This document shows, piece by piece, positions 11,176 through 44,075 of a DNA stretch of 47,307 nucleotides. Under the pieces are notes generated by a model. The model was not told where the DNA came from. It did no database searches and worked only from the letters and a program-made list of their open reading frames with translations. The translations under genes and the position numbers were made by a program. Each line of letters opens with the position of its first letter. Position 1 is the first letter of the stretch. The stretch lies in the NCBI RefSeq assembly GCF_004010195.1, contig NC_057758.1, positions 4,966,702 through 5,014,008 on the forward strand, read 5' to 3'. The stretch comes from Chiloscyllium plagiosum. Taxonomy: Eukaryota.

Positions 11176-12781
11176 GTAAGTACCAGATGATAAATACTTC
11201 ATTGTTTTTCTTTAAAGTTAGTTCTCAGCAATTATGTCTGTTTTACAGGTTTGGACTGAATTGTTTTCCCAGTCAACGACTGTAACAAAGTTGTAACGTG
11301 TTCCATGGGAATCAGTGCAATTAATGTTATAGTGAATCATTGTGTGTTAACTATTATCCTATTTACTATGTTACACATTCCTAAAAATATCTTCGACTGC
11401 CTTGTTGAAATATTATGTTTATCTGTGATATTATTGGAAGAAATGTATTCGATAATTGAGAATAATGTTTCAATATCATACATTACAGTGCAAATTTCTG
11501 ATTTGAGTTTGTGGAATAATATCACAATAGACAGTCATTTCAAACAATATCTGCATCAGTTGTATGACAGCATGGGAAAATTAAGAATAACAGGCCAATA
11601 ATTACACTAATGCATTTCAAAATGAATACACCCTATTTTTTATTTGACTTTACATACAACACATTGAGGGATGTTCATTTCAGTATAGTGGATTCACACT
11701 GCCCACCTCCTAATGGCAATGTCGAATTATGACTTAAATCTAAAATCACTTAAACGATTTGAGAGAAAATGGCAGATTGTTTTGACTTGTTATGCATTTG
11801 TTTTCTTCCTTTGAAATGTTGTTTAATTAGGGAAATTATATTGAATATATGCAAATACTTTCTAAAACATTTAGAAGTTTTGAGCATCTTTTCCTAAAGA
11901 TCAACAACTAATGCTCATTATTGATTTCAAGTCATGTTGATGGAGTTCGCTTGTTCCTTGTTGCAGTTGGTATGGGGGTGATAGTGCTGCTTCACAACAG
12001 CTTTAGTGGATGTGTTATCCAAAGATCCAAGAAGATATTAAGGTAGACGACCCAAGCATTTTTGGAATATGATTGACCATGAAGAGTCTTAAGTGGGAAA
12101 TGGACACTTCAACCACACAAGAATGCATGGTTTATATTGTTGCTTTAACCAAAATCAATGAAACTAATCAAATGAGAGATATCAAGGCAAGATGATGAAA
12201 GATTTAAGTTGTAGGGTTGTGCAATGAAATGACGGAAATATGGAGCTGCTTTGGAATGAATTTCAGAAATTTGGTGAAAGCAGCTAAAGGTGCATCCTTA
12301 AAGGAAGAAGTGACTAACATCAGGCATAGGCGGGAGAGCAGCATTTGAGGCTGTGAACACACGTGACTCCAGAGTATTTCCTGAAATTAATTACAATTGG
12401 ACCAATGGGGTTATCGAAATGCACACATTACCATAAAGAGGTCAGGTTAGAATAGACAATAGACAATTAGGGGATGTAAGGCCATTGGTATGAACAAGAG
12501 CATGGCAAACAACAAGTTTGGATGATGACAGGTTGCATAGTCATCGTTAGGGATTGATTTAATAATCGTGAGTGAGGTTAGTGACTTGGACAGGTTGCAA
12601 TAATTCGTGTATAATATAATCTGTTTTGGATGTTGAACAGCTATAAGTAACTGTGGAATTACACCTGCTTATCAGTGACACAGCGCCGAACAGAAACAAT
12701 GTAATACAAACTTGAATGTAACACTATCTAGCATTTGTTAATATCTCAGAAAAAATCTACCTCTGTTTGTATATCCAATAG

Positions 12782-13692
12782 CTAACTTGTTGGTCATTAT
12801 AATCCTGTCCAGAGGACAGTGTGGACTGTCACAATGCATCACCTACTACCTGGTGGCGATTGCGGTGGCCGATGTTCTGTTTATTATCACAGGATGCGTT
12901 CTCAACCGGATTGTCCGAAAATACTTTATAAACAGTGTCCTGTCAACCACTCCTGGCTGCAGCCTCAGCACCGTGCTGGTCTATGCCACTCAAGATAGCT
13001 CGGTCTGGTTGACTGTGGCCTTCACTTTCGACCGTTTTGTGGCCATATGCTCACAGAGAATGAAGAACAGATACTGCACAGAGAAAACTGCCACAATGGT
13101 CGTCGGAATAGTCTGTGCCCTGAGTTGTATCACGAACGTGCCTTTATACTTCGTGTACAAACCCCTGTTTACCATGGACAGTGTTCCCTGGTTCTGTGCT
13201 GTTCAGGACACCTTCTACACATCGTCAATTTGGAAAGCATACCACTGGCTGGATCAGATCCTAACGCCATTTCTTCCATTTTTTCTAATTCTTTTGTTCA
13301 ACATCCTGACTATAAGACACATCAAAGTGGCCAGCAGAGCCCGCAAGAGGCTCTGCAGTACTCGGCTTGGTGAAGATACTGAGTTAGCCAGTCGCAAGCG
13401 GTCCATTGTCCTACTCTTCGCCATTTCGCTGAGCTTCCTCCTCCTATGGGCCACCTATGTTGGACATTTCCTCTACGTGCGGGTTACAGGAGAGCGCTAC
13501 ATCACAAGCATGGATTTCAATGACCCAGAATACATCTTTCAAGAGATGACCAACTTGCTACAGCTACTCAGTTCCTGCAACAACGTTTTCATTTATGTGG
13601 TTTCCCAGAATAAATTTCAAGAGGAGACGAAGAAACTGCTGTTGAGTCCCATAAAAATGTTTGCTGTTTTCTTTAAAGTGTACCATCAATAA
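12782..13692 (+). CDS. GPR139/142-like orphan class A GPCR, coding exon 2 (end of TM1 to C-terminus; spliced protein 326 aa)
   Basis: Acceptor ...atatccaatag|CTAAC at 12780-12781. Uninterrupted ORF with TM2 LVAIAVAD, TM3 WLTVAFTFDRFVAIC, ECL2 Cys (PWFC), TM5 LTPFLPFFLILLFN, TM6 FLLLW, TM7 LLSSCNNVFIY and helix 8 KFQEE. TAA at 13690-13692. Confidence 0.93.
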
Positions 13693-15910: not shown

Positions 15911-16540
15911 CCTCTTCAGATGATCAGTTCCCAGCCACCGTCCACAGTTGACATTTCTGTCCTCCAGGAAGTTGGTATCTGTTCATCCAGGACAACCTTA
16001 TGTAAGGATTGGAATCAAAAAAATGTGCGTGTTGATTACAAAAGAAGCTTACATTGACAGAGTGCCACCTTCAATCACAGGCGATCTCAAAGCATTTCAC
16101 TTTTAGCGAGCCACTTTCAGAATTGGATATTCTGCTGAATACTTGAAGAGCCATTCTTGCAGAATGAGATCCCGCAGACAGTAGATCTGACAATATTTGC
16201 ACCATCTGTTTTCAGTGAAGTTGTCTTAAGGATAAATAGAGGGAATCAGACACGGGGTTAAATTTTCTCCTTTCCGCCCTCCTTCCAATTGTAATCATTT
16301 GATTGTTTATATCCTGAAAGGATAGATAGAGCCCTCAGGTTAAACCTTAACACAATGTCAGTAGTTTTATCTTTTTGATTTCAAGACTTCGGGAGTCTGA
16401 TATTTTTCAGACATTTTTTAAATACACATGGTTTGCTCAGCAGATGTAAAAGAAAAAGAGAGCCATCAAATTCTATACGAATAGATGTTGTCTAAAAAGA
16501 GACAGGTTTTGCAGCTAAAACCCATTGGACGACATCAAGT

Positions 16541-16866
16541 GGGCGGCACGGTGGCACAGTGGTTAGCACTGCTGCCTCGCAGCGCCAGAGACCCGGGTTC
16601 AATTCCCGACTCAGGCGACTGACTGTGTGGAGTTTGCACGTTCTCCCCGTGTCTGCGTGGGTTTCCTCCGGGTGCTCCGGTTTCCTCCCACAGTCCAAAG
16701 ATGTGCAGGGTCAGGTGAATTGGCCATACTAAATTGCCCGTAGTGTTAGATAAGGGGTAAATGTAGGGGTATGGGTGGGTTTCGCTTCGGCGGGTCGGTG
16801 TGGACTTGTTGGGCCGAAGGGCCTGTTTCCACACTGTAATCTAATCTAAATCTAAATCTAAATCTA
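16541..16866 (+). mobile_element. Full-length HE1-like tRNA-derived SINE
   Basis: Pol III A box TGGCACAGTGG and B box GGTTCAATTCC, core gtgtggagtttgcacgttctccccgtgtctgcgtgggtttcctccgg, LINE-like tail gggccgaagggcctgtttccacac and a terminal (AATCTA)n repeat. Confidence 0.93.
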
Positions 16867-19825: not shown

Positions 19826-21926
19826 CCGAAGAGTTTGAGACTTGTATATTGCCAAACCCAGCTCGGGCTTAAATCGTTCCCCCTTTATTCCTCTCCCTCT
19901 CACATATGGTTCGATATCTATTTCTTTTATTACAAGACTGTTTCGCTGTGGGATTGTCACAGTAAACTTCAAAAACGTCCAACATTTCCTGACTTCCTCC
20001 ACCACGTACTTTTCATCTATTTCCCAGTGACAGAAAACAAGTGGCTAGCAGCAGAATGCAATTCCTGAGGCAAGGAAACGGGGAACAACACATGTGCGAA
20101 ATCAGAAAGGGAATTTGCACATTGATGAGGCGGACTTGGTTCAGAATGTATTTCCCTGCGTAATTGGCTGGAGGACTGCAGCACTCTGTTGTTGTTTGGT
20201 CACGGTTTATTCCTTACGTCATGGAAACCAAAGCTCGTTCCACTGTCGTCACAATACAGCAATGGACCAATGATAACTGCTGAAGGAACGGATGCGCTCT
20301 GGCCCTCCACCCATTCAGAGTTCCTCGATTTTCTGAGCGCTACCATTGAATAATGAGCTTCTGAAGCGGTACTTTCCTGATCAGCGAATGTACTGCTGCT
20401 ACTACTCTCTCTGAATGAAGGTGGAACTTTACCCAAACTGAAACTTCCCCCTCTGTACATCATCTGGCAACACAACACTGGTTTTTATATTTCATGTCCT
20501 TTTCCTTGTTGTGTTGGGCCTGTATCATGAAATTGTAGAAACTGAAAGGAAAGGAATTAAATCCAGGAAAGAAGCAGGTGACTGTCAAGGAGAACAGTTG
20601 GTGAGCGGGATCTGTTAATCACCAAATTCAGGAGAATGGGGAGGTATACATTAGGTGATTTTACTGGTCCTCGGAAGCTGCCTGAACTGCTTTTGCAGCA
20701 CCACTAATCCAGAGTCTGGTTTCCAGAATCTGCAGTCATTGTGTTTATCTAGGTATACGTTAGTGACAGAAGAGTGAAAACTGTGGATGCGTGTGGCACG
20801 GAGGATTACAGATTTGAGGGAAGATTGAAGAGAAAGCTATTATAAAGATACTGGAAGTGTCAGTTCTGAATTTCAAACCTGAGCTTATTATTTTTATCAT
20901 TTATCTTAAAGGGTGCCCAATGGAAAAACTTAAACACAGAAATATTCTCCGACCGAACTCCCATCTGATCTCTAATGCTCCCTTGTTTCTTCTGTTTAAA
21001 GAACCGTTGTTTTTTGATGTCTTTATTCGAGACTCCGCAAACAAAATAAAAGCTCATAAACAGTAATTACTGCTCCAAATAATCGGCGAAATCAGCTCCG
21101 CACTGAAAAACAATCTGAAAGCAAAGGAGCAGTTCTTACAACCCTGATTCACTCCCATCCTCCATCCTGACTGCTTCTTGTTCACACAGACCATACTTGT
21201 TTCTGGCTGGATGAGGTTTTCTCTGGTTTTTAACCTTCCAAATAAAAAGGACACCCATCAGGTGGAGAACCAGGAAATTTGAGGACTGTTGGAAGATATT
21301 TCATTCCTTTCCAGTACTGGAATTTCAGCGACGTTGTCACACAAGGGAGAGGCCATTCACCTATTCGTAATGTGAAAGGCAATCCCTGCCTTATCTGTCC
21401 TATGAAAGCACGAGCCTGCTGTGACCAGCATCAATGGCAACATCGAACGGTTTCAAGAAAAAAAAATGGATGTAGCTGAAGCAGGTGCAGTGTATCTCAG
21501 TTGTTTTTTTTAATTCTCAAATGCCTGCTGGCATTATTCTGTCGATCTAAATTTTCTGTTATCAATTAATTAGTCTGTTAACATTGGCACCACGCCACTG
21601 AAGTTTGGAACAAATCTCCGGTGGAATCAACTTTGTCCGAAAAATCGAAGCACCTTTTTCTTCAAGGATGGTCATAGAAATTTCTCAATAACATTTGTCT
21701 TCGCGTTCCTTGGACTTAGCCTTCCATGACTCATATTGTGTCTCAGGGACGTCACACCTGTCTTCTTGAATTCTGTTATCTTCAAGTTTATTCACAGTTT
21801 TCTTTTTCTCGTAATCGTTCAAAGAGCTCATCCAGCTATAACATGTGATCTTTCCATGACTCGCAAAAGATTATTACTTCATCCAGGTAAACTGCACACT
21901 TTGTTAATACAGTCATAATTCTGTTC

Positions 21927-22137
21927 TAATTTGGAAATGCCGGTGTTGGACTGGAGTGTACAAAGTTAAAAATCACACAACACCAGGTTATTGTCCAACA
22001 GGATTAATTAGAATCACACTAGCTTTCGGAGCGCTGCTCCTTCACAACCACCTGATGAAGGAGCGATGCTCCGAAAGTTACTGTGCTTCCAATTAAACCT
22101 GTTGAACCATAACCTGGTGTTGTGTGATTTTCAACAC
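21927..22137. mobile_element. Palindromic Penelope-derived insertion with a decayed hammerhead (duplicate at ~25527-25736)
   Basis: Inverted arms aaaatcacacaacaccaggtta.../...taacctggtgttgtgtgatttt. CTGATGA-A-GGAGC-GAT-GCTCC-GAAA at 22052-22076. Flanking direct repeat TTCTGTTC (21919-21926 / 22138-22145). It interrupts the gypsy RT frame. Confidence 0.8.
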
Positions 22138-22275
22138 TTCTGTTCATGAGTCTTTGCAGTGTGGCAGGTGCTTTCTTCATTCCAATGTTTGTCAATTGGG
22201 ATTCATGCAGCTCATTTGGATTTATAAACGAGGAAACATTTTTTGCTTTCTCTGATAAAGATATCTACCAATAAA

Positions 22276-22592
22276 CATGCAGTGAGTCCAAATTTGGGCA
22301 GCACGGTAGCACAGTGGTTAACACTGCTGCTTCACAGCGCCAGAGACCTGGGTTCCATTCCCGCCTCGGACAACTGTCTGTGTGGAGTTTGCACATTCTC
22401 CCCGTGTCTGTGTCGGTTTGCTCCGGTTTCCTCCCACAGTCCGGAGATGTGCAGGTTAGGTGAATTGGCCATGCTAAATTTCCCGTTGTGTTAGTTGTAG
22501 GGGAATGGGTCTGGGTGGGTTTCTCTTCAGAAGGTCGATATGGACTTGTTGGGCCGAAGGGCCTGTTCCCACACTGTAAGTAATCTAAAAAA
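22276..22592 (+). mobile_element. HE1-like SINE inserted in the gypsy RT
   Basis: Homologous to 16541-16866 (A/B boxes, core, tail). Confidence 0.9.
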
Positions 22593-23083
22593 AGACTCCA
22601 ATGATGTTATCGGTAGGAATGCGATTTTGTTAGAGTTGACCTTCCGATAGTAAACATAAAATCTTGAATCCTATCAGGTGTAACAATTAACATCATCGGC
22701 GAATTCCACTCACTCTGACTCGGTTCAATGATATCTTCGTTCAGATTCGCATCCATGTCCTTCTGGATGGGTGTGGCTTTCAGAGGATTAAATCTGTCAG
22801 GGTTTTGATTTTCGGAACGGCACTTCCAACTTCTGCCTTGTACACAATAGTAGAGGTCCTCCCCATTATATTCTAGCATGTGTCCACGTACTATTGCGTG
22901 GACCTTTCAACTCAGTTCTTTACTCCAAAGAGAGAGAGTGATCGTTTTCTAATCCCTCCCACTCCTCAAGGACTTCCTCATTATTTCACGTGTTTTGAGA
23001 CACATCAAAATTCATAACATTCTGATTTGATTACTCTGTGTGCCGGGAGAAAATAACGCCAGCTTCTCCAGTTCCTTGTCTCT

Positions 23084-23583: not shown

Positions 23584-26500
23584 AACATATCTGTAAGTGA
23601 ATCCCCCAGATTCCGAGACAGAAAACAAGTGGCTTCCAGCAGAATGCAATTCCTGAGGCAAGGAAACGGGGAACAACACATGTGCGAAATCAGAAAGGGA
23701 ATTTGCACATTGATGAGGAGGACTTGGTTCAGAATGTATTTCCCTACGTAATTGGCTGGTGGACTGCAGCACTCTGTTGTTGTTTGGTCACGGTTTATTC
23801 CTTATGTCATGGAAACCAAAGCTCGTTCCACTGTCGTCACAATACAGCAATGGACCAATGATAACTGCTGAAGGAACGGATGCACTCTGGTCCTCCACCC
23901 ATTCAGAGTTCCTCGATTTCCTGAGCGCTACCATTGAATAATGAGCTTCTGAAGCGGTACTTTCCTGATCAGCGAATGTACTGTTGCTACTACTCTCTCT
24001 GAATGAAGGTGGAACTTTACCCAAACTGAAACTTCCCCCTCTGTACATCATCTGGCAACACAACACTGGTTTTTATATTTCATGTCCTTTTCCTTGTTTT
24101 TTTTTTTACATTCTGGGCTTATATCATGAAATTGTAGAAACTGAAAGGAAAGGACTTAAATCCAGGAAAGAAGCAGGTGACTGTCAAGGACAACAGTTGG
24201 TGAGCGGGATCTGTTAATCACCAAATTCAGGAGAATGGGGAGATATACATTAGGTGATTTTACTGCTCCTCGGAAGCTGCCTGAATTGCTTTTGCAGCAC
24301 CACTAATCCAGAGTCTGGTTTCCAGAATCTGCAGTCATTGTGTTTATCTAGGTATACGTTAGTGACAGAAGAGTGAAAACTGTGGATGCGTGTGGCACGG
24401 AGGATTACAGATTTGAGGGAAGATTGAAGAGAAAGCTATTATAAAGAAACTGGAAGTGTCAGTTCTGAATTTCAAACCTGAGCTTATCATTTTTATCATT
24501 TATCTTAAAGGGTGCCCAATGGAAAAATTTAAACACAGAAATATTCTCCGACCGAACTCCCATCTGATCTCTAATGCTCCCTTGTTTCTTCTGTTTAAAG
24601 AACCGTTGTTTTTTGATGTCTTTATTCGAGACACCGCAAACAAAATAAAAGCTCATAAACAGTAATTACTGCTCCAAATAATCGACGAAATCAGCTCCGC
24701 ACTGAAAAACAATCTGAAAGCAAAGGAGCAGTTCTTACAACCCTGATTCACTCCCATCCTCCATCCTGACTGCTTCTTGTTCACACAGACCATACTTGTT
24801 TCTGGCTGGATGAGGTTTTCTCTGGTTTTTAACCTTCCAAATAAAAAGGACACCCATCAGGTGGAGAACCAGGAAATTTGAGGACTGTTGGAAGATATTT
24901 CATTCCTTTCCAGTACTGGAATTTCAGCGACGTTGTCACACAAGGGAGAGGCCATTCACCTATTCGTAATGTGAAAGGCAATCCCTGCCTTATCTGTCCT
25001 ATGAAAGCACGAGCCTGCTGTGACCAGCATCAATGGCAACATCGAACGGTTTCAAGAAAAAAAAATGGATGTAGCTGAAGCAGGTGCAGTGTTTCTCGGT
25101 TGTTTTTTTTAATTCTCAAATGCCTGCTGGCATTATTCTGTCGATCTAAATTTTCTGTTATCAATTAATTAGTCTGTTAACATTGGCACCACGCCATTGA
25201 AGTTTGGAACAAATCTCCGGTGGAATCAACTTTGTCCGAAAAATCGAAGCACCTTTTTCTTCAAGGATGGTCATAGGAATTTCTCAATAACATTTGTCTT
25301 CGCGTTCCTTGGACTTAGCCTTCCATGACTCATATTGTGTCTCAGGGACGTCACACCTGTCTTCGTGAATTCTGTTATCTTCAAGTTTATTAATAGTTTT
25401 CTTTTTATCGTAATCGTTCAAAGAGCTCATCCAGCTATAACGTGTGATCTTTCCATGACTCGCAAAAGATTATTACTTCATCCAGGTAAACTGCCCACTT
25501 TGTTAATACAGTCATAATTCTGTTCTAATTTGGAAATGCCGGTGTTGGACTGGAGTGTACAAAGTTAAAAATCACACAACACCAGGTTATTGTCCAACAG
25601 GATTAATTCGAATCACACTAGCTTTCGGAGCGCTGCTCTTTCACAACCACCTGATGAAGGAGCGATGCTCCGAAAGTTACTGTGCTTCCAATTAAACCTG
25701 TTCGACCATAACCTGGTGTTGTGTGATTTTTAACACTTATGTTCATGAGTCTTTGCAGTGTGGCAGGTGCTTTCTTCATTCCAATGTCAATTGGGATTCA
25801 TGCAGCTCATTTGGATTTATAAACGTGGAAACATTTTTTGCTTTCTCTGATAAAGGTATCTACCAATAAACATGCAGTGAGTCCAAATTTGGGCAGCACT
25901 GTGGCACAGTGGTTAGCACTGCTGCCTCACAGCGCCAGAGACCTGGGTTCCATTCCCGCCTCGGACAACTGTCTGTGTGGAGTTTGCACATTCTCCCCGT
26001 GTCAGTTTCCTCCGGTTTCCTCCCACAGTCCAGAGATGTGCAGGTTAGGTGAATTGGCCATTCTAAATTTCCCGTTGTGTTAGTTGTAGGGGAATGGGTC
26101 TGGGTGGGTTTCTCTTCAGAGGGTCGATATGGACTTGTTGGGCCGAAGGGCCTGTTCCCACACTGTAAGTAATCTAAAAAAAGACTCCAATGATGTTATC
26201 GGTAGGAATCCGATTTTGCTCGAGTTGACCTTCCGATAGTAAACATAAAATCTTGAATCCTATCAGGTGTAACAATTAACATCATCGGCGAATTCCACTC
26301 ACTCTGACTCGGTTCAATGATATCTTCGATCAGATTCGCATCCACGTCCTTCTGGATGGGTGTGGCTTTCAGAGGATTAAATCTGTCAGGGTTTTGATTT
26401 TCGGAACGGCACTTCCAACTTCTGCCTTGTGCACAATAGTAGAGGTCCTCCCCATTATATTCTAGCATGTGTCCACGCACTATTGCGACAGACCTTTCAA

Positions 26501-26675
26501 CTCAGTTCTTTACTCCAAAGAGAGAGAGAGTGATCGTTTTCTAATCCCTCCCACTCCTCAAGGACGTCCTCATTATTTCACGTGTTTTGAGGCACATCAA
26601 AATTCATAACATTCTGATTTGATTACTGTGTCTGCCGGGAGTAAATAACGCCAGCTTCTCCAGTTCCTTGTCTCT
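23584..26675 (+). repeat. Segmental duplication, copy 2
   Basis: Colinear with 19797-23083. Confidence 0.95.
25891..26181 (+). mobile_element. HE1-like SINE (duplicate of 22276-22592)
   Basis: A/B boxes, core and tail present. Confidence 0.9.
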
Positions 26676-33479: not shown

Positions 33480-33940
33480 AGTTCTTGGAAAGACTGTAAC
33501 GGACACTACATTGGATAACAGACAGACATCTCGGCACCAGGATATATGAATATCAACTAGCCACAGAAAGACATATCCAACTCTCACTGGTATCCTTCCA
33601 TACGGTTGAGGAAGTACACCACTTCGAATGTGACGTTTCAAACGGAACTCTGTCGATAAAAACACATTGTCTTGAATGCCATTTACCACTTCCTCAGAAA
33701 AGAACAGGAAATGACATCGCAGGAGGAAATAGCATCATCATACGAAATGGCATCACCAACTGAAGGAAACTCAAACATATAAATCGAAAGAGGGCGACGC
33801 CACCAGTGCTTCATCCGGAGGCTCACTGAAGATGTTACCTAGTATGGTGACGAAACGTTTGAAAATGAACTTACCAGCTCAGCGAGTAAACCTATATCCA
33901 GAACCTCAACCTGAGCTACAAATGTTCTCAATACTCTCTA
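33480..33940 (+). mobile_element. 5'-truncated Penelope-like element (decayed GIY-YIG plus 3' terminal region)
   Basis: KDCNGHYIG..RHLGTRIYEYQLAT homologous to the 37150 ORF. The 3' end ccagctcagcgagt..ctgagctacaaatgttctc is homologous to 38566-38629. Confidence 0.85.
33823..33862 (+). ncRNA. Minimal type I hammerhead ribozyme motif
   Basis: Stem I TCA(33823-25)/TGA(33860-62); CTGAAGA 33826-32; extra T; stem II GTTACC/GGTGAC; GAAA 33852-55; palindromic ACGT stem III; GUU cleavage triplet. Confidence 0.78.
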
Positions 33941-34608: not shown

Positions 34609-34760
34609 GGATTGTGGTAGGGATCCGGAGCATCGAGTGGAGACCCCCGCACAAACACGTGGATATTGTGCAAAATCAATACCGATAGTTGCTCGAAGCT
34701 GGAATCCAACCTTGGTAGCTGGCGTTTCGCAGCAACAGTGCTAACCAATGGGCCACCCTG
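34609..34760 (-). mobile_element. Decayed HE1-like SINE 5' part
   Basis: Reverse complement ggtggcccattggttagcactgttgc..ggttggattcc resembles the A/B boxes of the 16541 SINE. Confidence 0.65.
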
Positions 34761-35379
34761 CTCCCCATGTTGGTCAGCAGCTTTCATCATCTGTGAATCA
34801 TGGAACTGAATCTTGGACTGCACCTGTCCACTGAACGCCTGTGTTTGTCGCTCTCAGCTGATTGTGCGCACAGTAACAAGAGGAAGTCGTGCTATGTGCG
34901 ATCGTGGGCAGAGACGGTTGGGTGGGACAGAACATGCATAGAAGATATCAGTGCAAATATGTGTAAAAAATAACTAGGGTTTAGGACATCGGCAGAGATC
35001 GAGGCGGAGCAACATTCTACGGAGTGATGCGATGATGTACTTGAGAAAATTAAAATAATACCCTTGGTAGACCATAGCATAGTTTTCATTTCTTTTCAGT
35101 ATACTAACGTGCTTTTCTTTTCAGCATATTACACTTTATTTAAAACATTCACCAGTTCAAAATTTAGGAGCAAATTATAAGGTTTTCTTGAATGAAAGAA
35201 AGAGGAGCTTACTAACCCCTCCAAACAAAATGAATAAAACGTGACATTAAACACATGCAAAAACATATATAAATTTAAGAAGTGGATAGTGTCTAGTGCA
35301 AAATAAAAGAATATTCAGTTTAAAAGTCCCTGAGCTGGTAGGTTTTAATCTGAGACCACAGCTATTTTCTCATGGCTTG

Positions 35380-35810: not shown

Positions 35811-36663
35811 CTCCTTAGTACTAGTTTAATCAATGTCTTATATTCTCAACAGTAGCAAAATTTGTAGATATATTCTTTGGAAAATTGATGTTCTCCAGGT
35901 TGTTTTGTTATTGGGTGAGATAAAAGGGACCAAGTCCCACTGTTACTTATCCTTTCTGCCAATGCAGCTGCTTGAAATTTAGGTAATTTGTTTATTCATG
36001 TGTCTGACACAATTGATTTTCCAAGCTGAATAATTTGCGGGTAAATCTTTCATCCCAATATGTGAATTTACCTGTCAAGGTGTAACTCAAGCAGGAGTTA
36101 CAGATCTGAGTTTCTATGCCTTTTGATATTGGCACAGACTGATTCTTGTTTCTTAATGGTTCCATAAGCTGGTTCAGCTTGTGGTTAGCTGATTGCTGCA
36201 GCCCGTTTGCCAGTGTTTTCTCCTTTCTGGTTGGGTATGTGAGGAGCGTGTTGGTGGAGTAGGTCCAGTGGGGTGTCAAAGGATCAGTTATATAGTTACG
36301 CAGGTATTAGACATGGGTTTTACCTGTCCAATGCTTCCTCATCAATTATCCTGATAAATAAGTTGGAACCTTCTGAAGTCTAACTCGGAGATGGAGACAG
36401 ATTGTTATTCGACCATCAATATGCTGTGTTACCTATTCTGGAAAGGGTACAGACCATTTTACAGGAAAATGAAGGACCGGCAGTCAGAGTCCATTGGAAG
36501 GAAGATTGGAGAGGCTAGAGTTTAAGAAGCAAATTAAAAAGCAGTACCGCAGAGCTTACTCCCAGTGCCACAAGCCAGACATAGAAGGATATTGCAAGGT
36601 TATGCATAGCTAGAGACATCCTGCAATGGAAGACCTCAAGAGTCCTGGGTTATTAGATTACGG

Positions 36664-36867
36664 CTGAAAATGTGTTGCTGGAAAAATGCAGCAGGTCGGG
36701 CAGCATCCAATGAGCAGGAGAATCGACGTTTCGGGCATGAGCCTGAAGAAGGGCTTATGTCTGAAACGTCGATTCTCCTGCTCCATGGATGCTGCCTGAC
36801 CTTCTGCGTTTTTCCAGCAACACATTTTCAGCTCTGATCTCAAGCATCTGCAGTCCTCACTTTCTCC
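36664..36867 (+). mobile_element. Palindromic Penelope-derived insertion with a hammerhead core
   Basis: Arms aaaatgtgttgctggaaaa..cgacgtttc / gaaacgtcg..ttttccagcaacacatttt. CTGAAGA-A-GGGC-TTAT-GTCT-GAAA-CGTC at 36743-36770. TSD TTATTAGA(T/C)TACGG at 36650-36663 and 36868-36881. Confidence 0.85.
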
Positions 36868-37124
36868 TTATTAGACTACGGGGAAATTAACTAGTCTTAT
36901 GGGAGAGAATTTAAATTAATTTGATAGAAGTTTGAGCACCAAAGTATAATGTTAAAAAAAAGAAACTGGCTGCATAGAGAACTGAGTGATAATTAATTAA
37001 GTGGGGTCACAGAAAATTTAAGAAATTCTCAGTTTATTTGGGGTGCTTATGTGTGAACTTGCAGTGTGAGGTTCAGAAGATTGATTGATTAAGTGCTGTC
37101 AACTTGCAGGTAGTGGTGTCTCAC

Positions 37125-37610
37125 CAGAGCGAAGGACACGATACCCAGCATGAGCAAAACTAATATAGTGTACAAAATTCCATGCAAGGACTGCACAAAA
37201 CACTATATAGGACAAACAGGAAGACGGCTAACGACCCGCATCCATGAACATCAACTAGCCATGAAACGCCTCGACCAGCTATCCTTAGTAGCCACACACG
37301 CAGACGACAAGCAACATGAATTCGACTGGGACAACACTACCATTATAGGGCAAGCCAAACAAAGAACAGCCAGGGAATTCCTAGAAGCATGGCACGCATC
37401 CACAAACTCCAACAACAAACACATAGACCTGGACCCAATATACCGGCCACCACAGCGGACAGCTGAAACTGACAACCGGAAGCAGCAGGGACAGGCCACT
37501 ATAAATGCCGGAGGAAACACCACAGAAGCGCTTCACAGGAGGATGTCACCTAGACAGGGGACGAAAAGTTTGCAACAAAAATTTCCAGCTCGGCGAACAG
37601 TACCATAACA
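37125..37610 (+). mobile_element. 5'-truncated Penelope-like element with an open GIY-YIG endonuclease frame
   Basis: ORF 37150-37608: NIVYKIPCKDCTKHYIGQTGRRLTTRIHEH...REFLEAWH..NSNN (VY-YIG, CxxC, catalytic R/E/N). The hammerhead CTGA is removed by an internal deletion near 37540. Confidence 0.92.
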
Positions 37611-38374
37611 TTATTGACACCATTAAGAATTTATTTCATAGCTCAATATTCAGATAGCAGACGGTAAGAGCTGGTGAAGTATATCCTGGAATTGGTAGTA
37701 GTGAACATTCAGAATGTTCAGTGTATTGAGTCAGCAATAAGCTCATGGTCAAAGGAATCACTACAGTTTCGATTCATCGGTAACACCCGCATTTATTGAC
37801 CAGTGACAGGATGGAGTCAGAGAAAGTGATTGGACGTTATAACCAGAGCAGAAGACAGTGGCCTCCAAGCTCCCATTTTCTTTTCAAAACGATAAGGGCA
37901 GTGATTAAATGAACTGTGGTTCACAGCTGGATCTGAGATGATCAATAGAGAGACAGACAAGGGAATGTGCCAGAAGCAAAGAGAAAGAGAGTGAACGAAT
38001 AAGTTCATGGATGCAGTTAGCCGCGATTTATAGAGTGAATATCTGGATTCAGCGTCTCAAACTGAATGTTAACAGTACCAAGGAGGGTAGGGAAAATGTA
38101 AAGAACAATAATACAGTTATACATTGTTGATAGAAATAAAAACTGCACTTTGAGTCTGAGCAGGCACACCAATAATCCAGTATAGGACAATGAAAATATT
38201 CAATAATGCAAAGTGTATGTTGGATCCGCCAATATCATGACCATCAATCAAACTGTGTAAAATGATAGGAAACATTCCAGTGTAAGTTCCTGCCCATTTA
38301 CTCCTACATGTCAGTCTAATATTCTCAGATTCTGGTCTCTACTATCTTTCTCTCTGGACGTGCTGATCTCTGTT

Positions 38375-38629
38375 GTTGTGGTTCTGTTCGCCGAGCTGGA
38401 AGTTTTTGTTGCAAACGTTTCGTCCGCTGAAAACTGACAACCGGAAGCGGCAGGGACAGACCACTATAAACACCAGAGGAAACATCAAAGAAGCGCTTCG
38501 CGGGAGGCTCCTAAGCACTGATGATGTCGCCTAGCCAGGGGACGAAACGTTTGCAACAAAAGCTTCCAGCTCGGCGAACAGAACCACAACAAGGAGCACC
38601 CGAGCTACAAATCTTCGCACAAACTTTGA
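38375..38629 (+). mobile_element. Short Penelope insertion with an inverted 5' terminal fragment
   Basis: 38372-38424 is the reverse complement of the 3' terminal region. Perfect 15-bp TSD GTGCTGATCTCTGTT at 38360-38374 and 38630-38644. Same family as 37125-37610. Confidence 0.92.
38503..38567 (+). ncRNA. Minimal type I hammerhead ribozyme motif
   Basis: GCA(38515-17)/TGC(38552-54); CTGATGA 38518-24; stem II GTCGCCT-AGCC-AGGGGAC; GAAA 38544-47; ACGT stem III; distal stem I GGAGGCT/AGCTTCC. Confidence 0.82.
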
Positions 38630-39689
38630 GTGCTGATCTCTGTTAGTACCGTAGATGATGCTCCGACTAAAACTATGGAATAACACATTGTTTGGAGCTT
38701 ATTTACCAGTAAACATGAAAACCCTCCACTTGGAAAATTAGAATCCATTAGAATCCATGACTAAATCATCAAAAAGAGGTTCAGGTAACCCAGTTCTTAC
38801 ATTATTATTTATGTTACAACAAAAGGAAACAATTACTCAGTTTCCATGGAATGGACGAGGGTTGCTGTAATATTAACCATCCATTACTCAATCTAATTGA
38901 TCTTTCTTCCCTGTCTGTGAGAGTACTGTCGGAACACTACAGGGTTGTAGATGTACCCGCCCACTCCAGCCTCCTCCGTTTATAAAACAGGAATTAAACA
39001 ACAGGCCAACTTCATAAAAAAGACTGCTGGGGAAATTTCGAGTGACCATAAACCAAGGTAACAATATTTATTGGCCAATGACTTTGTGTAATGCTGCTCC
39101 CAGTTTTAAGTGCCCTGTTATCAAAGTCTTTCATAACTCTGAGACATCATTCACTTCATTGAAACCGCTGATCATGAAAAGGGGGAATCAAATCTTCCTC
39201 ATATGCCTGGTACAGAGGGATAGGAGAAGGGCATTCAGCCCACAAAGGACTGCTGCAACTTGAAGAGATGGAAAGCTGAATCGTTACCACATTTTGCAAA
39301 AGAAACCATTCAAAGCATAGAGAACTGTTACTGCAACTACACAAGGTGTTACTGAAAGGACGCGTGGAGCAAATTTTGTTGTTTGCATTTCTGAGAAGGA
39401 ATGGACCTCCATCAGAAACAGTTTACTGGTTGCTCATACTGCACGTCTTGCTGTCTCATTTAATGTTTTGAGCCTGTTTCAGAGGCTAGGAGGACGCTAT
39501 TCAGTCAATAAAACTGTGACAGAGAGACAGGACGGGGCCATTCAGCCTCTCGCTTGTGTTATACGTGAATTGAAGGAGGCCATTCAGCCTCTTGCGCCTT
39601 TTACACAGGAACAGAAGGAAGTATTTCTGTTTTTAGTGTCTGCTACACTGCAACAATTAATTTAAGAAAGTTATGGAAAAGGATAAACC

Positions 39690-41110
39690 TCATGTAAACG
39701 TTGAAGTTCTAAATTGGAGGAAGTCCAATTCTGAACTCATTCGGCATGCACTTTGAAAAGCTGATTGAAAGAGACATTTTGCAGGTAAAGGGACGTTTAT
39801 CATTATGAACCGTGAAAATACCGTGTGTTGCTGGTAGGAAGAAGGACAAGAATGGTAGGTGTCGGAAAATCTGAATACATGGAGAAATGTGGCTAACGTC
39901 AAGCAAAAGCAGGAAGCATATGACATGTATAGACATCTGGGATCAAGTGACTCCCCAGCGAAGTATAAAAACATTAGAACTATAGTCAAAAGGGCGAAAA
40001 GGGGACATGAGACCGCTTTGGTAAAATCCAAAGATATTCTACAAATATGTAAAGAAAACAAAGGGCAATAAGTAGAGAATAGGGCTCTTTAATGATGAAC
40101 AAGTCGTCTATGTGTGGAACCACCAGAAATGGGTGAGATACTAAAGAAATATTTTGTGTCAGTATATACTGGGAAGAAAGATATAGAAGGTGGATAACTC
40201 GGAAAAAGAAATAGTGATGTTCTCACAAGGCTCCATATTACAGAGTAGATGGCGCTGGATGTCTGAAAATGTCATAAAGAACGACAAATCTCCGGGAGCC
40301 AATCGACGGTGTACTGGAACGCTGTGAAAAGCTGGAGAAGTGATTGCTATGCACCTTGCAGATATATGTGTGTCATTGATGACCACGGGGGAGATGTTTG
40401 ACGACTGAAGGATGGCTGGAATTGGGGTTAAGAAAGGTGTTCAGAAAAAGCCAGGAAACAGAGATCAGTGAGCGTGTCGTCAGTGACAGGCAATCTATTG
40501 GAGGGGATTCCAAAGAATTTGATTTTTTAAAATGTTTTTGGAAAGGCAATTGCCGTTTTGGAATAGCCAACATGGCGTTGTACGTTGGACATCATGTCTT
40601 TCATCCTCGTTGTTTTTTTTGAAGAAGTGACAAATACAATTGATGAATGCAGAGTGCTAAATATGATCTGCACAGACTTCATTAGCCGTTCGATAAGGCT
40701 GCTCATGTTAGATTGTTTAGCACAGTCATATCACACGGAATGCAGGGGAGGCGAGCCATTTGGATACTGAACTGGCTCGAAGGTAGGAGAACAGGCCGTT
40801 TTGGTGAAGAGTAATATTACAAACTGGAGGCTTCTTCCAAGCACTGTGCCCCAAGGATTCGTGCTGGCTCCACTATTTTTTCGAAATTTACATAAATGGC
40901 TTGGATTTGAATGAAGGAGTTATGGTTTCCAAGTTTACGGACAACATCACAAATGGAAGTGCAGTCAACAACGATGAAGGTTGGCACAGAGTAAAAAGGG
41001 ACCTTGATCAGATGGGCAGAAGATGGACAGATTGAGTTTATTTCAGATAAATGTGAGTTTTGCATTTTGCTATGGCACATCGGAGCTACATTTAGAGGTA
41101 GTGTTCTGGG
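39690..41110 (+). mobile_element. Decayed CR1/HER1-type LINE ORF2
   Basis: VLNWRK, DKSPG, VPQGFVLAP, SKFTDN (FADD-like) and DKCEFLHF motifs appear in the expected order. Confidence 0.85.
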
Positions 41111-41294
41111 AAGTACTTCCAAGACAGAAACTTTCATCAAAGTTATAGAACCACTGCAGAGTTGAACCATGCGCTTTGGCCAGTTGGATTTACACTGACT
41201 GTCCAAAGAGTATCCGACCTGACACACCCACAGCTTGTTTCTGAAACCCTGCCTTTCTCTCAGCTCAACACGGGATACTGCAGGCAATTAAACA

Positions 41295-41476
41295 ACGCCA
41301 ATGCACCTAAACTCCACATCTTTGGACTGTGAGAGTTAATTAGAACATCCAGAGGAAAACCACGCAGATACGTTCGAGAATATGCAAGCTCCACACAGAC
41401 AATCGCTGGAGGGTGGAATCGAACGCTGGTCCTTGATACTATGAGGCAGCAGTGCAAACCAAGCAGACATCGTGCC
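41295..41476 (-). mobile_element. Decayed HE1-like SINE
   Basis: Reverse complement matches the SINE core (ctgtgtggagcttgcatattctc..tctgcgtggttttcctctgg..cacagtccaaagatgtg). Confidence 0.8.
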
Positions 41477-41602
41477 ATCCAAGTGATTCTCAGAGACTGA
41501 ATGCACTCTCCCACTTTCTCCGCAAGCCTCACATATTTTCAAATGGTATCGAATTCCAGTGGGGTTATTGTGGTTCTGTTCGCCGAGCTGAAAGTTTGTG
41601 TT

Positions 41603-41642
41603 GCAAACGTTTCGTCCCCTGGCTAGGCGACATCATCAGTGC
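41603..41642 (-). ncRNA. Minimal type I hammerhead ribozyme motif (inverted copy)
   Basis: Exact reverse complement of 41666-41705. Confidence 0.8.
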
Positions 41643-41665
41643 TTGGGAGCCTCCGAGGCTCCCAA

Positions 41666-41705
41666 GCACTGATGATGTCGCCTAGCCAGGGGACGAAACG
41701 TTTGC
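41666..41705 (+). ncRNA. Minimal type I hammerhead ribozyme motif
   Basis: GCA-CTGATGA(41669-75)-T-GTCGCCT-AGCC-AGGGGAC-GAAA-CGT-T-TGC. Confidence 0.82.
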
Positions 41706-42019
41706 AACAAAAACTTCCAGCTCGGCGAACAGAACCACAACAACGAGCACCCGAGCTACAAATCTTCGCACAAACTTTGAAAACTTACGTCCAGTGGGGT
41801 ATCTTCGAAATGACATCTTTTTCCCTTACCTGAGAATTCCACCCCCTTTCAATCTCTGGTGGAATGGGACTTTAGCTGTGACTATTCTATCTTCTGCACC
41901 TCGACCACATCCCCTCCTTCCCATATCAAGTCGTCTATTGATACTGTATGCAAAATGCTTAAATTACTAAATTACAACAAGGAAGTGCAGGTGCTGGAGA
42001 TCTGAAACAAAATCTCTTC

Positions 42020-42296
42020 TGATGCAAAGTCTCAGATTTGAAATGTTGGCTCCGCTTTTTTTCTACAGATGCTGCCAGACTTCCTGCGTTTCATCAGCAA
42101 CTTCTGTATTTGCATATCTCATTTCCTGTTTAACACTTGTACAAAATTTGCCCTGCAGTGATGCAAAGTCTCAGATTTGAAATGTTGGCTCCGTTTTTTT
42201 TTACAGATGCTGCCAGACTTCCTGCGTTTCATCAGCAACTTCTGTATTTGCATATCTCATTTCCTGTTTAACACTTGTACAAAATTTGCCCTGCAG
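42020..42296 (+). repeat. ~139-bp tandem duplication (2 copies)
   Basis: 42020-42158 repeated at 42159-42296. Confidence 0.95.
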
Positions 42297-43994
42297 TTTT
42301 GACTTCGATATATCACTCTCACCAACATTTGCTTCTTCCTGCTATTTATAAGCTTCGGCGAAACTGATTCTGTCCCAGCTGAGCGACGTTGACTTTGGTG
42401 AGTTTCATTGTAGATTCAGCGAGATGTTTCTTGAGGCCTTTTCTTGATGTTAAGGTATCCTCTCTGACTCGTGTTCGTTCCTCTCAAGGGGAGTAGTGAG
42501 ACTCTCCATGGGTCTCCCCTAACGCTGGCGGAATGGAGAAAGACAATGATATCCCTACACTGCTGTACATTCGTCCCGATGGTTGAGACTGCTCTCACCT
42601 AGATGACCACTCCAGTGCTGGCAACCATGGTACTGTCTCATGGTCTCCATTCCTGATCCTGGGAAAGGGGATATCCTGCTCGTGACTGGAGCCATCCAGG
42701 AAGTGCTCGATGCCCATTCCCATAATACGGGTTTGGATAGGGCAGCTATTTCACACTGACTGAAAAGTGCAGGATCAGAGCCAAGGGCTGTCCAGGATAG
42801 CTCTGCACGGACGGTGCTTGCCCCAGTGCAGTTTATGTTTTAAAAGATGGCACTGATTCTGGGAAGCTGATTAATTCCAGCTTCTACGGTGAGTGGGGAG
42901 TTGCTCTGGAAATGAAGTGCAGTGAGACATGGTAGAAATGCAACATGATTCGCACTGTGAGTGCTCGAACGGCAATTAAGTGGGAAAGTTGGTCAGATCC
43001 CGTCAGCCTCACGGTCTAAATCTCTCCTGAGGATCGAGTCAACTGGTACTTTGTTGAATCACCGATCTACCCCACCTCCTCTCCATTTTTGTACAATACT
43101 CCAAAAGGTAAAATCGTTTGACAGTTTGTTCCCAATTTCGGTCACCTTGTAGCTACGTCTCTCTAATATCATAAAGTCATATCCAATTTCGTCAATTGAA
43201 CTGCTCAAATGTTTTTGAGAATACAACATATATTGAGATAGAATGTGTGTAATTCAACTTTTTGAACCATTATTCCTTGCTTCATGGTTGCCTTTATTCC
43301 TGACTTTGACAGTTCAAGAGACAGTCTGACATCATCATACTCTCAGAATTAGACATGATGGGAAATGTTTCGTGTAGCAACATCGCCGTCGCTGGGTTTA
43401 TCCTGTCCCACCGGCAGGAGAGAACCACCAGTGATGGTGGCATCCTGGTATACCGTGGTATACCGTGTTATGCTGAAATTCTGCAATGTTGATTCCAGAA
43501 CCCCAGATATCTCATGTTTTACAGTTCAAAGATTGGTCAATGAAATCGCTTGATGAAGGACATTAACTGCCATCTGAACCACCCCTCCGTGATAATTCAG
43601 TTCTCCTCGATGTTGGAAACAGATCAGAGAAAGCATTGAGAGTGACAAGGACACGAAATATACTCTGGATGTGATAGCTCAGTGTCAATCATCAAGCTTT
43701 CTCCACAGGCTCACCACTGACTGAGCAGGTCGAGACAGCAAATGCAGAGCAACCAGACTTTGGAAGTGATAGGCGTACCGATAAGAGAGAAACATTTTCA
43801 ATAAACTAATTGTCACAGACGATATGTCCCTAACAGCATCTGTCTGAGCACCCAACACACAGTCATGGCGGAGGTAACGTCTCAGCCTCATTTTGAAAAT
43901 ACGACCCATGCTATTATGTAGCACAGCCTCCTGCGAAGTATGACGTACCTCTAATGCTTCCAGCAAATGAAAACTAGGCATCCATGAGGCACTG

Positions 43995-44075
43995 TGGGCC
44001 ATCATCAGCTGCAGCATCAAAGGCATTCCCTCCATCATAAAGTCTGAAGTGGGTTGTTCGCTGAAGATTCCAAAA
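43995..44075 (+). mobile_element. Small LINE RT fragment
   Basis: Reads ..SCSIKGIPSIIKSEVG(L)FAED, resembling the CFINDLP..MFADD region of RT. Confidence 0.5.

Follow-up and report, generated by a model that had tools for sequence, protein, structure and literature searches.

The palindromic sequence at 41555-41800 of the window (the whole 47,307-nucleotide stretch of Chiloscyllium plagiosum DNA that was analysed) is very probably the dead product of a single integration event, a stub-sized insertion of a Penelope/Poseidon retrotransposon that bears an endonuclease. The analysis showed its family identity, its target-site duplication (TSD), an inverted arm lacking a tail, a direct arm carrying one, and differences in the junction from copy to copy. 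The stub is laid out as target duplication, tail-less inverted terminal repeat (pLTR), direct repeat, 37-bp tail and target duplication, and this architecture is already in print (PMC3846280, PMC8557442, PMC4209133). Inverted 5'-truncated copies with a one-sided tail of 30-40 bp are described as typical of Penelope-like elements (PLEs; PMC8557442, PMC8969392), as are palindromes at the inverted junction (PMC3846280).

Structure of the insertion

The features of the stub and of its relatives in the window are as follows (coordinates, strand, description).

41555-41565 (+): left TSD, 11 bp, the last 2 nt lying within the inverted arm
41564-41654 (-): inverted tail-less pLTR arm, 90 nt plus a 'spacer' base that matches the parent sequence
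41603-41642 (-): inverted-arm hammerhead motif of the minimal type, with its predicted cut following 41606; mirror of 41666-41705
41647-41661 (no strand): head-to-head junction, single in the window
41655-41744 (+): direct pLTR arm
41656-41685 (+): last 9 codons and stop of the element RT-EN ORF, by likeness to the end of protein P0002
41666-41705 (+): minimal hammerhead motif of the direct arm, 3-bp stem I, predicted cut after the GUU at 41702
41669-41698 (+): boxes of the direct-arm motif, namely CUGAUGA (41669-41675), an inserted U, stem II (41677-41694) and GAAA (41695-41698), followed by ACGU
41675-41781 (+): 35-codon open frame with its ATG at the start of stem II, from frame reading and the analogy with PAc
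41745-41781 (+): 37-nt 'tail', direct side only
41782-41789 (+): 8 extra nt preceding the right TSD
41790-41800 (+): right TSD
38360-38644 (+): sister insertion of the same family, with a 15-bp TSD, a 54-58-nt inverted arm, a direct arm and a tail
37120-37610 (+): longer copy from a related subfamily, in which the C-terminus of a GIY-YIG endonuclease leads into the same pLTR and the end has no tail
33778-33930 (+): diverged relative (69% over 150 nt) that shares the TATAAA spacing, the hammerhead core and the tail

The near-perfect 90-bp inverted repeat with a 1-nt spacer, on which the original prediction was built, was confirmed: the arms (41564-41653 and 41655-41744, 90 nt each) pair at 87/90 positions, with mismatches at 41567, 41591 and 41598, against a window-wide chance expectation of ~7e-43. 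The flanking 11-bp direct repeat with an offset right copy was likewise found (TCCAGTGGGGT at 41555-41565 and 41790-41800; chance ~1e-4 for 20x20 offsets), the right copy sitting 8-9 nt past the usual family end at 41780-41781. The extra bases at 41782-41789 are possibly further element sequence, and one contig of sequencing run X1 tracks the reference to 41786. The palindrome is asymmetric, the 37-nt tail being present on the right side alone. The arms are within 1 nt of each other in length, the left one extending one parent base beyond the right. The inverted arm begins inside the left TSD, sharing 2 nt with it in the palindrome and 3 nt in the sister copy 38360-38644, which weakly suggests primer pairing. 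The 15-mer at the junction (41647-41661) occurs once in the window with up to 2 mismatches allowed.

The window carries three further family copies. The sister insertion, 3 kb from the palindrome, has the same layout and a different junction: its direct arm begins ~78 nt further upstream. Since its arm lengths are other than those of the palindrome, the junction is not a family constant. Divergence between the two arms of the palindrome (3/90) resembles that between copies (3/126 positions, sister copy against right arm). A TSD search at 37110, 33793 and 25564 gave nothing convincing, and at 21965 only a 9/10 match.

EN+ PLE insertions (Arkhipova et al. 2013, PMC3846280; Craig et al. 2021, PMC8557442) share with the stub the head-to-head arrangement of an inverted 5'-truncated and a direct pLTR, and in both systems the pLTR holds the first ORF codons and TATA and Inr-like motifs. 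The one-sided tail is 30-40 bp there and 37 here, and the TSD is 8-10 bp there and 11-15 here. The present insertion differs from those described there in consisting of two arms only, of lengths within 1 nt, with no ORF body.

Two other element classes were ruled out. A MITE or foldback DNA transposon does not agree with the one-sided tail or with TSDs of 11 and 15 bp in two copies of the same family. A non-LTR retrozyme was rejected on the presence of one motif per strand, head to head, whereas retrozymes (bioRxiv 10.64898/2026.07.22.740005) are head-to-tail tandems with at least 2 same-strand motifs; retrozymes and the stub have in common that they are PLE-derived, non-coding in effect and carry a type I hammerhead.

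Family identity and coding remnants

The longer copy supplies the link to an endonuclease (EN). At 37120-37545, directly before the pLTR, it encodes IVYKIPCKDC..YIG with two Cys between GIY and YIG, a segment absent from the stub. The Atlas score for GIY-YIG was 0.94, the Pfam match to PF01541 was below the cut-off (E=0.0096) and the longer frame had no match at E<=0.01. The proteins closest to the endonuclease of 37120-37610 belong to Chiloscyllium and Hemiscyllium (bamboo-shark), at 84-91% identity, a result that by itself points to a related shark as the probable host. One of these shark proteins, P0002, is 87% identical to the window endonuclease (84.5% over 142 aa to 37120-37545) and has a reverse transcriptase (RT) with YVDD (RVT_1, E=3e-6, just under the cut-off; P0013 passes it). 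No RT is left in the window copies and the RT link comes through P0002.

No CxxC was found upstream of EN in 6/6 homologues with the EN start located (7 examined of 20). A CX2-5CxxC linker marks Neptune and Nematis, while Penelope/Poseidon are without it (PMC8557442), and the combination of an upstream RT and no CxxC linker in the sequence of P0002 points to Penelope/Poseidon by the criteria of that paper. The hallmarks of EN+ PLEs, namely an inverted pLTR, a one-sided tail of 30-40 bp and a TSD of variable length, were all found.

The arms had been described as free of coding sequence, which does not quite hold, as they contain remnants of the element ORF (its last 9 and, probably, first 35 codons). 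The frame at 41656-41685 (+) translates as RLPSTDDVA*, resembling the C-terminus of the shark RT-EN protein P0002 (which ends RRLPSTEDVT). An ATG at 41675 starts a frame that is open through the end of the tail; this 35-codon frame is a probable N-terminus of the PLE ORF, by analogy with PAc, a Poseidon element of Anolis (PMC11167929). The 35-codon peptide had no match among 20 homologous proteins, mostly C-terminal fragments, and the translated flanks gave no clear gene. The PLE origin that had been proposed for the element is supported.

This PLE endonuclease also occurs, at 68-91% identity, in several shark gene models that bear the names of host genes (MAP3K7, NT5DC1, CUEDC2, EYA3-like and others; P0001, P0012, P0014, P0017, P0019), either as exonised stubs or through annotation artefacts.

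Sequencing runs and junction variation

Four of 24 listed runs, three of DNA (X1, X5, X11) and one of RNA, were compared with 41490-41960. The DNA runs gave 9,364, 10,289 and 10,639 contigs on this interval, nearly all on the element, which shows a very abundant family and is not a copy number. Flank depth was 20-39 in X1 and X5, and left-side flank depth was 0 in organism B. Single contigs cross the left flank-to-arm junction in both X1 and X5, and the right junction in X1.

Loose contig ends, their flanks mixed, accumulated at 41742-41744 (51 contigs in X1) and at 41779-41781 (63+177 in X1, 24+44+129 in X5, 76+198 in X11), both among the 24 of 406 entries listed. These two piles correspond to the tail-less and the tailed end, 37 nt apart.

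Of 17 joints, 15 were listed; all have different coordinates and 14 are represented by one contig of one run each. The exact junction of the palindrome is collinear with the reference and so cannot register as a joint in this comparison. Sequences that reach 41654/41655 and then leave the reference continue into the parent sequence (26, 41 and 21 contigs; 35 and 81 RNA reads). No empty-site joint was found among the 15 of 17 joints listed. The differing joints argue against a self-propagating unit, the exact-junction count covering the window only. An opposite-strand joint at 41717/41727 recurs (X1, depth 7; X5, depth 298; 3 RNA reads) and could reflect either a single expressed locus or a junction present in several copies.

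The RNA run, of which ~2% was read, gave 327 reads, ~9:1 in one orientation on the right arm; the predominant orientation is element sense under the usual library convention. None of the 327 reads from this portion lay on the unique flanks. Mismatches in the RNA run comprised A>G at 10 places, T>C at 7, C>T at 13 and G>A at 14, in reads that are not assignable to this locus.

Ribozyme motifs and predicted folding

Each arm carries CUGAUGA-U-[stem II: GUC..GAC]-GAAAC-GUU, with the predicted cut after 41702 (+) and 41606 (-). The motif is of the minimal, dimer type, with no loop III and a palindromic ACGU; stem I, as read from the letters, has 3 bp (GCA/UGC), and stem II has 3+3 pairs flanking a G.G mismatch. 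Judged from sequence, both arms contain the elements of a minimal hammerhead (CUGANGA, the extra base, G10.1-C11.1, GAAA, NUH and palindromic 15.2-16.2). No hammerhead family was matched in Rfam at E<=1 in 39000-44000; the 5/5 matches there were miRNA hairpins at 23-32 bits, below gathering scores of 44-100, and were discarded as generic hairpin matches. In a six-row alignment stem II was 96.7% paired, with zero compensatory changes. A metagenome scan with the family hammerhead pattern gave 0 matches and was uninformative because the pattern is that of a shark repeat.

The claim of a full hammerhead consensus in each arm therefore stands for the core motif, present in both, and has to be qualified for the rest: the type is minimal, with a 3-bp stem I, a G.G mismatch and no Rfam hammerhead. 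The motifs look intact because the copy is young (2-3% divergence), and ribozyme function is only predicted.

Metazoan PLE minimal hammerheads (Cervera and De la Pena 2014, PMC4209133) have the same core boxes, the extra nucleotide after position 9, G10.1-C11.1, palindromic 15.2-16.2 and no loop III. Opposite-strand motif pairs ~100-700 bp apart are described in the same source, where a single minimal hammerhead is inactive and dimers are weak. The present motifs differ from those described there in a stem I of 3 bp (4-5 there), a stem II of 6 pairs with a G.G mismatch and a separation of only ~25 nt, and they are known from sequence.

The predicted energy of the hairpin was -182 and -191 kcal/mol, and that of the stem III duplex was computed as -1.7 to -3.5 kcal/mol. 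The pair probability of stem II was 0.81-0.94 when the right arm was folded by itself and 0.37-0.43 for the left arm by itself, but 0 when the whole element was folded. When folding of a growing transcript was modelled, the hairpin was already closed at all lengths tested from 41670 onward. The original prediction had hairpin folding compete with ribozyme folding, which is mostly wrong: transcription from either side makes the antisense arm first, so that the hairpin wins with little competition and stem II probability falls from ~0.9 to 0. Cleavage by PLE hammerheads as dimers was reportedly described by Lunse et al. in 2017. The two motifs of the palindrome are on opposite strands, and a dimer is therefore impossible in cis. 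On this modelling the hammerheads would be passengers, locked inactive within the 90-bp hairpin of a read-through transcript.

Proposed integration model and self-priming

As a tentative account, with a probability somewhat below even, the stubs may record PLE integration by a dimeric protein that primes both nicked target strands at two RNA start sites, many of the cDNAs running off ~30 nt below the pLTR TATA before they are joined. In the likely mechanism the element endonuclease would nick both target strands ~11 nt apart, and each 3'-OH would prime reverse transcription on element RNA. The top-strand nick would prime at the start site that leaves no tail (~+70 from the ATG), and the bottom-strand nick at the one that includes the tail (~+107 to +115). 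Joining of the two short cDNAs at their 3' ends would then give a head-to-head palindrome in the order TSD, inverted arm, direct arm, tail, TSD. The near-equal arms would be explained if both cDNAs halted just short of the probable RNA 5' end, 8-9 nt before it, the end itself lying ~30 nt below the conserved TATAAA; their near-symmetry suggests a shared stop.

Support for two start sites comes from PAc (Frangieh et al. 2024, PMC11167929). The PAc protein, a predicted dimer, cuts and extends both target strands and initiates reverse transcription at two sites within the RNA, one on either side of the tail, with no need for hammerhead cleavage (PMC11167929). The loose-end piles at the two 3' boundaries are as expected of two such sites. 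The PAc ORF starts at stem II, as here; its cut site is at +26 (+28 here), its tail lies between two start sites as in the shark element, and its RT start falls at +111-118, within an AC-rich stretch, where the shark element has its tailed end at +107 to +115. PAc was assayed as a protein, whereas the present evidence consists of genomic products, and the PAc text covered gives no account of the inverted arm.

Evidence on the stop is divided. The spacing from TATAAA to a CTTC(A/G) Inr-like motif is identical in 3/3 window copies with upstream sequence, one of them the diverged relative (69%). The palindrome arms start 38 and 39 nt from the TATA, the stub itself being without TATAAA, and arm ends lie 30-34 nt from the TATA in 6 of the 12 entries listed, which fits run-off at an RNA 5' end placed from these motifs. 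The corresponding extension test gave 9e-5, a value that assumes uniform lengths of 1-40 and is indicative only, as short contigs favour short extensions. Against run-off as the sole stop, many joints lie at 41671-41750, and the direct arm of the sister copy (38426) already begins on the upstream side of the TATA. The run comparison showed no accumulation of molecule starts at the RNA 5' end.

Retroviral strong-stop DNA offers a comparison for cDNA run-off at an RNA 5' end. In L1 twin priming the second target strand primes an inverted segment and the product is flanked by a TSD; the inverted part of L1 is a different, upstream part of the RNA, whereas here the same part is copied twice. No paper stating a twin-primed run-off model was found in the literature covered, most subscription papers lying outside that coverage.

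The same PLE stub could also arise by snap-back self-priming of the first (antisense) cDNA, which would produce the inverted arm, followed by endonuclease trimming at the tail boundary. This route, which we consider somewhat unlikely, departs from the main reading at the proposed priming step alone. Self-priming on the antisense template is the proposed and favoured cause of inversion in PMC3846280, the tail has been attributed to EN-mediated resolution (PMC8557442), and the copy at 38372 has junction microhomology and a shorter inverted arm. The palindrome junction would, however, need 2-3 untemplated bases for the loop of a snap-back, and none if two RNA-templated ends are joined. Three joints have one arm starting in the tail (41746, 41747, 41750) and a longer other arm, their far ends being unseen, which also speaks against this route. 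The C of the left arm at the equivalent of 41710, a variant present in ~11% of X1 family depth, is compatible with a second RNA template and equally with a later mutation.

Alternative origins

The original prediction left a choice between truncation with inversion and a unit that moves by itself. The first is upheld by the same layout with another junction in the sister copy and in other repeat families. The second, a non-autonomous palindrome transcribed and re-inserted whole by PLE proteins with its junction inherited, is very unlikely. A pLTR alone suffices in cis to mobilise other sequence (PMC3846280), and the joint 41717/41727 does recur in two DNA runs and 3 RNA reads. As far as the comparison was run, however, the sister copy has another junction, the 15-mer is single in the window, 15/15 joints listed differ, and sequences that depart from the reference at 41654/41655 enter parent sequence. 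The stub is moreover without TATAAA, and the flanks drew 0/327 RNA reads in the ~2% of the run that was read.

Co-option of the hairpin by the host, as dsRNA, editing substrate or small-RNA precursor, is less likely still. The hairpin is very stable and has weak miRNA-like scores in Rfam, and heavy editing has been described for Penelope of a lizard and for palindromic repeats of frogs (PMC5625713); yet all 5 Rfam matches are far below their gathering scores (23-32 against 44-100 bits), no RNA read lay on the flanks in the portion read, the left flank has depth 0 in organism B and no A>G excess is attributable to this locus.

That the palindrome is an artefact of assembly, through fold-back of a repeat, or else a DNA transposon of MITE type is highly improbable: the window does contain assembly gaps (1,280 N) and a 3-kb near-duplicate, and no contig spanning the palindrome centre was among the 24 of ~30,400 pieces listed, but the arms differ at 3 positions, both flank-to-arm junctions lie on single contigs, TSD length varies (11, 15 and 14 bp), the repeat is asymmetric and it is linked to an RT-EN ORF.

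Other features of the window

Two other palindromic arrangements share the layout of the 41555-41800 element. The stub at 36650-36881, of another repeat family, has 89-nt arms (88% complementary) with an 8-nt spacer, a hammerhead-like CUGAAGA..GAAAC core, a one-sided tail of ~35 nt and a 13/14-bp TSD. A stub of a third family, with 80-nt arms and the tail on the left, is present at 21965-22135 and again at 25564-25734, because the surrounding sequence is duplicated on the two sides of an N gap (20029-23083 and 23617-26675, 97%); the duplicate perhaps represents uncollapsed haplotypes.

An intronless ORF of 316 aa at 12742-13692 (+) encodes a rhodopsin-family 7TM domain (PF00001, E=3e-23). A tandem duplication of ~139 bp (98.6% identity) occupies 42020-42297. 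A dispersed repeat, which we take to be SINE-like, occurs at 41277-41487, 16534-16850, 22295-22589 and 34609-34767, the copies being 71-84% alike.

Implications

As a single locus the insertion matters little, since dead PLE stubs of this sort are very numerous. Collectively, the stubs bear on how PLEs make inverted ends, and the population of junctions tests the integration mechanism: if the proposed model is true, the junctions, thousands of them in the shark, would locate the promoter and tell twin priming from self-priming. The stubs are also ready-made 90-bp hairpins, and those included in transcripts could supply substrate for A-to-I editing or dsRNA sensing.
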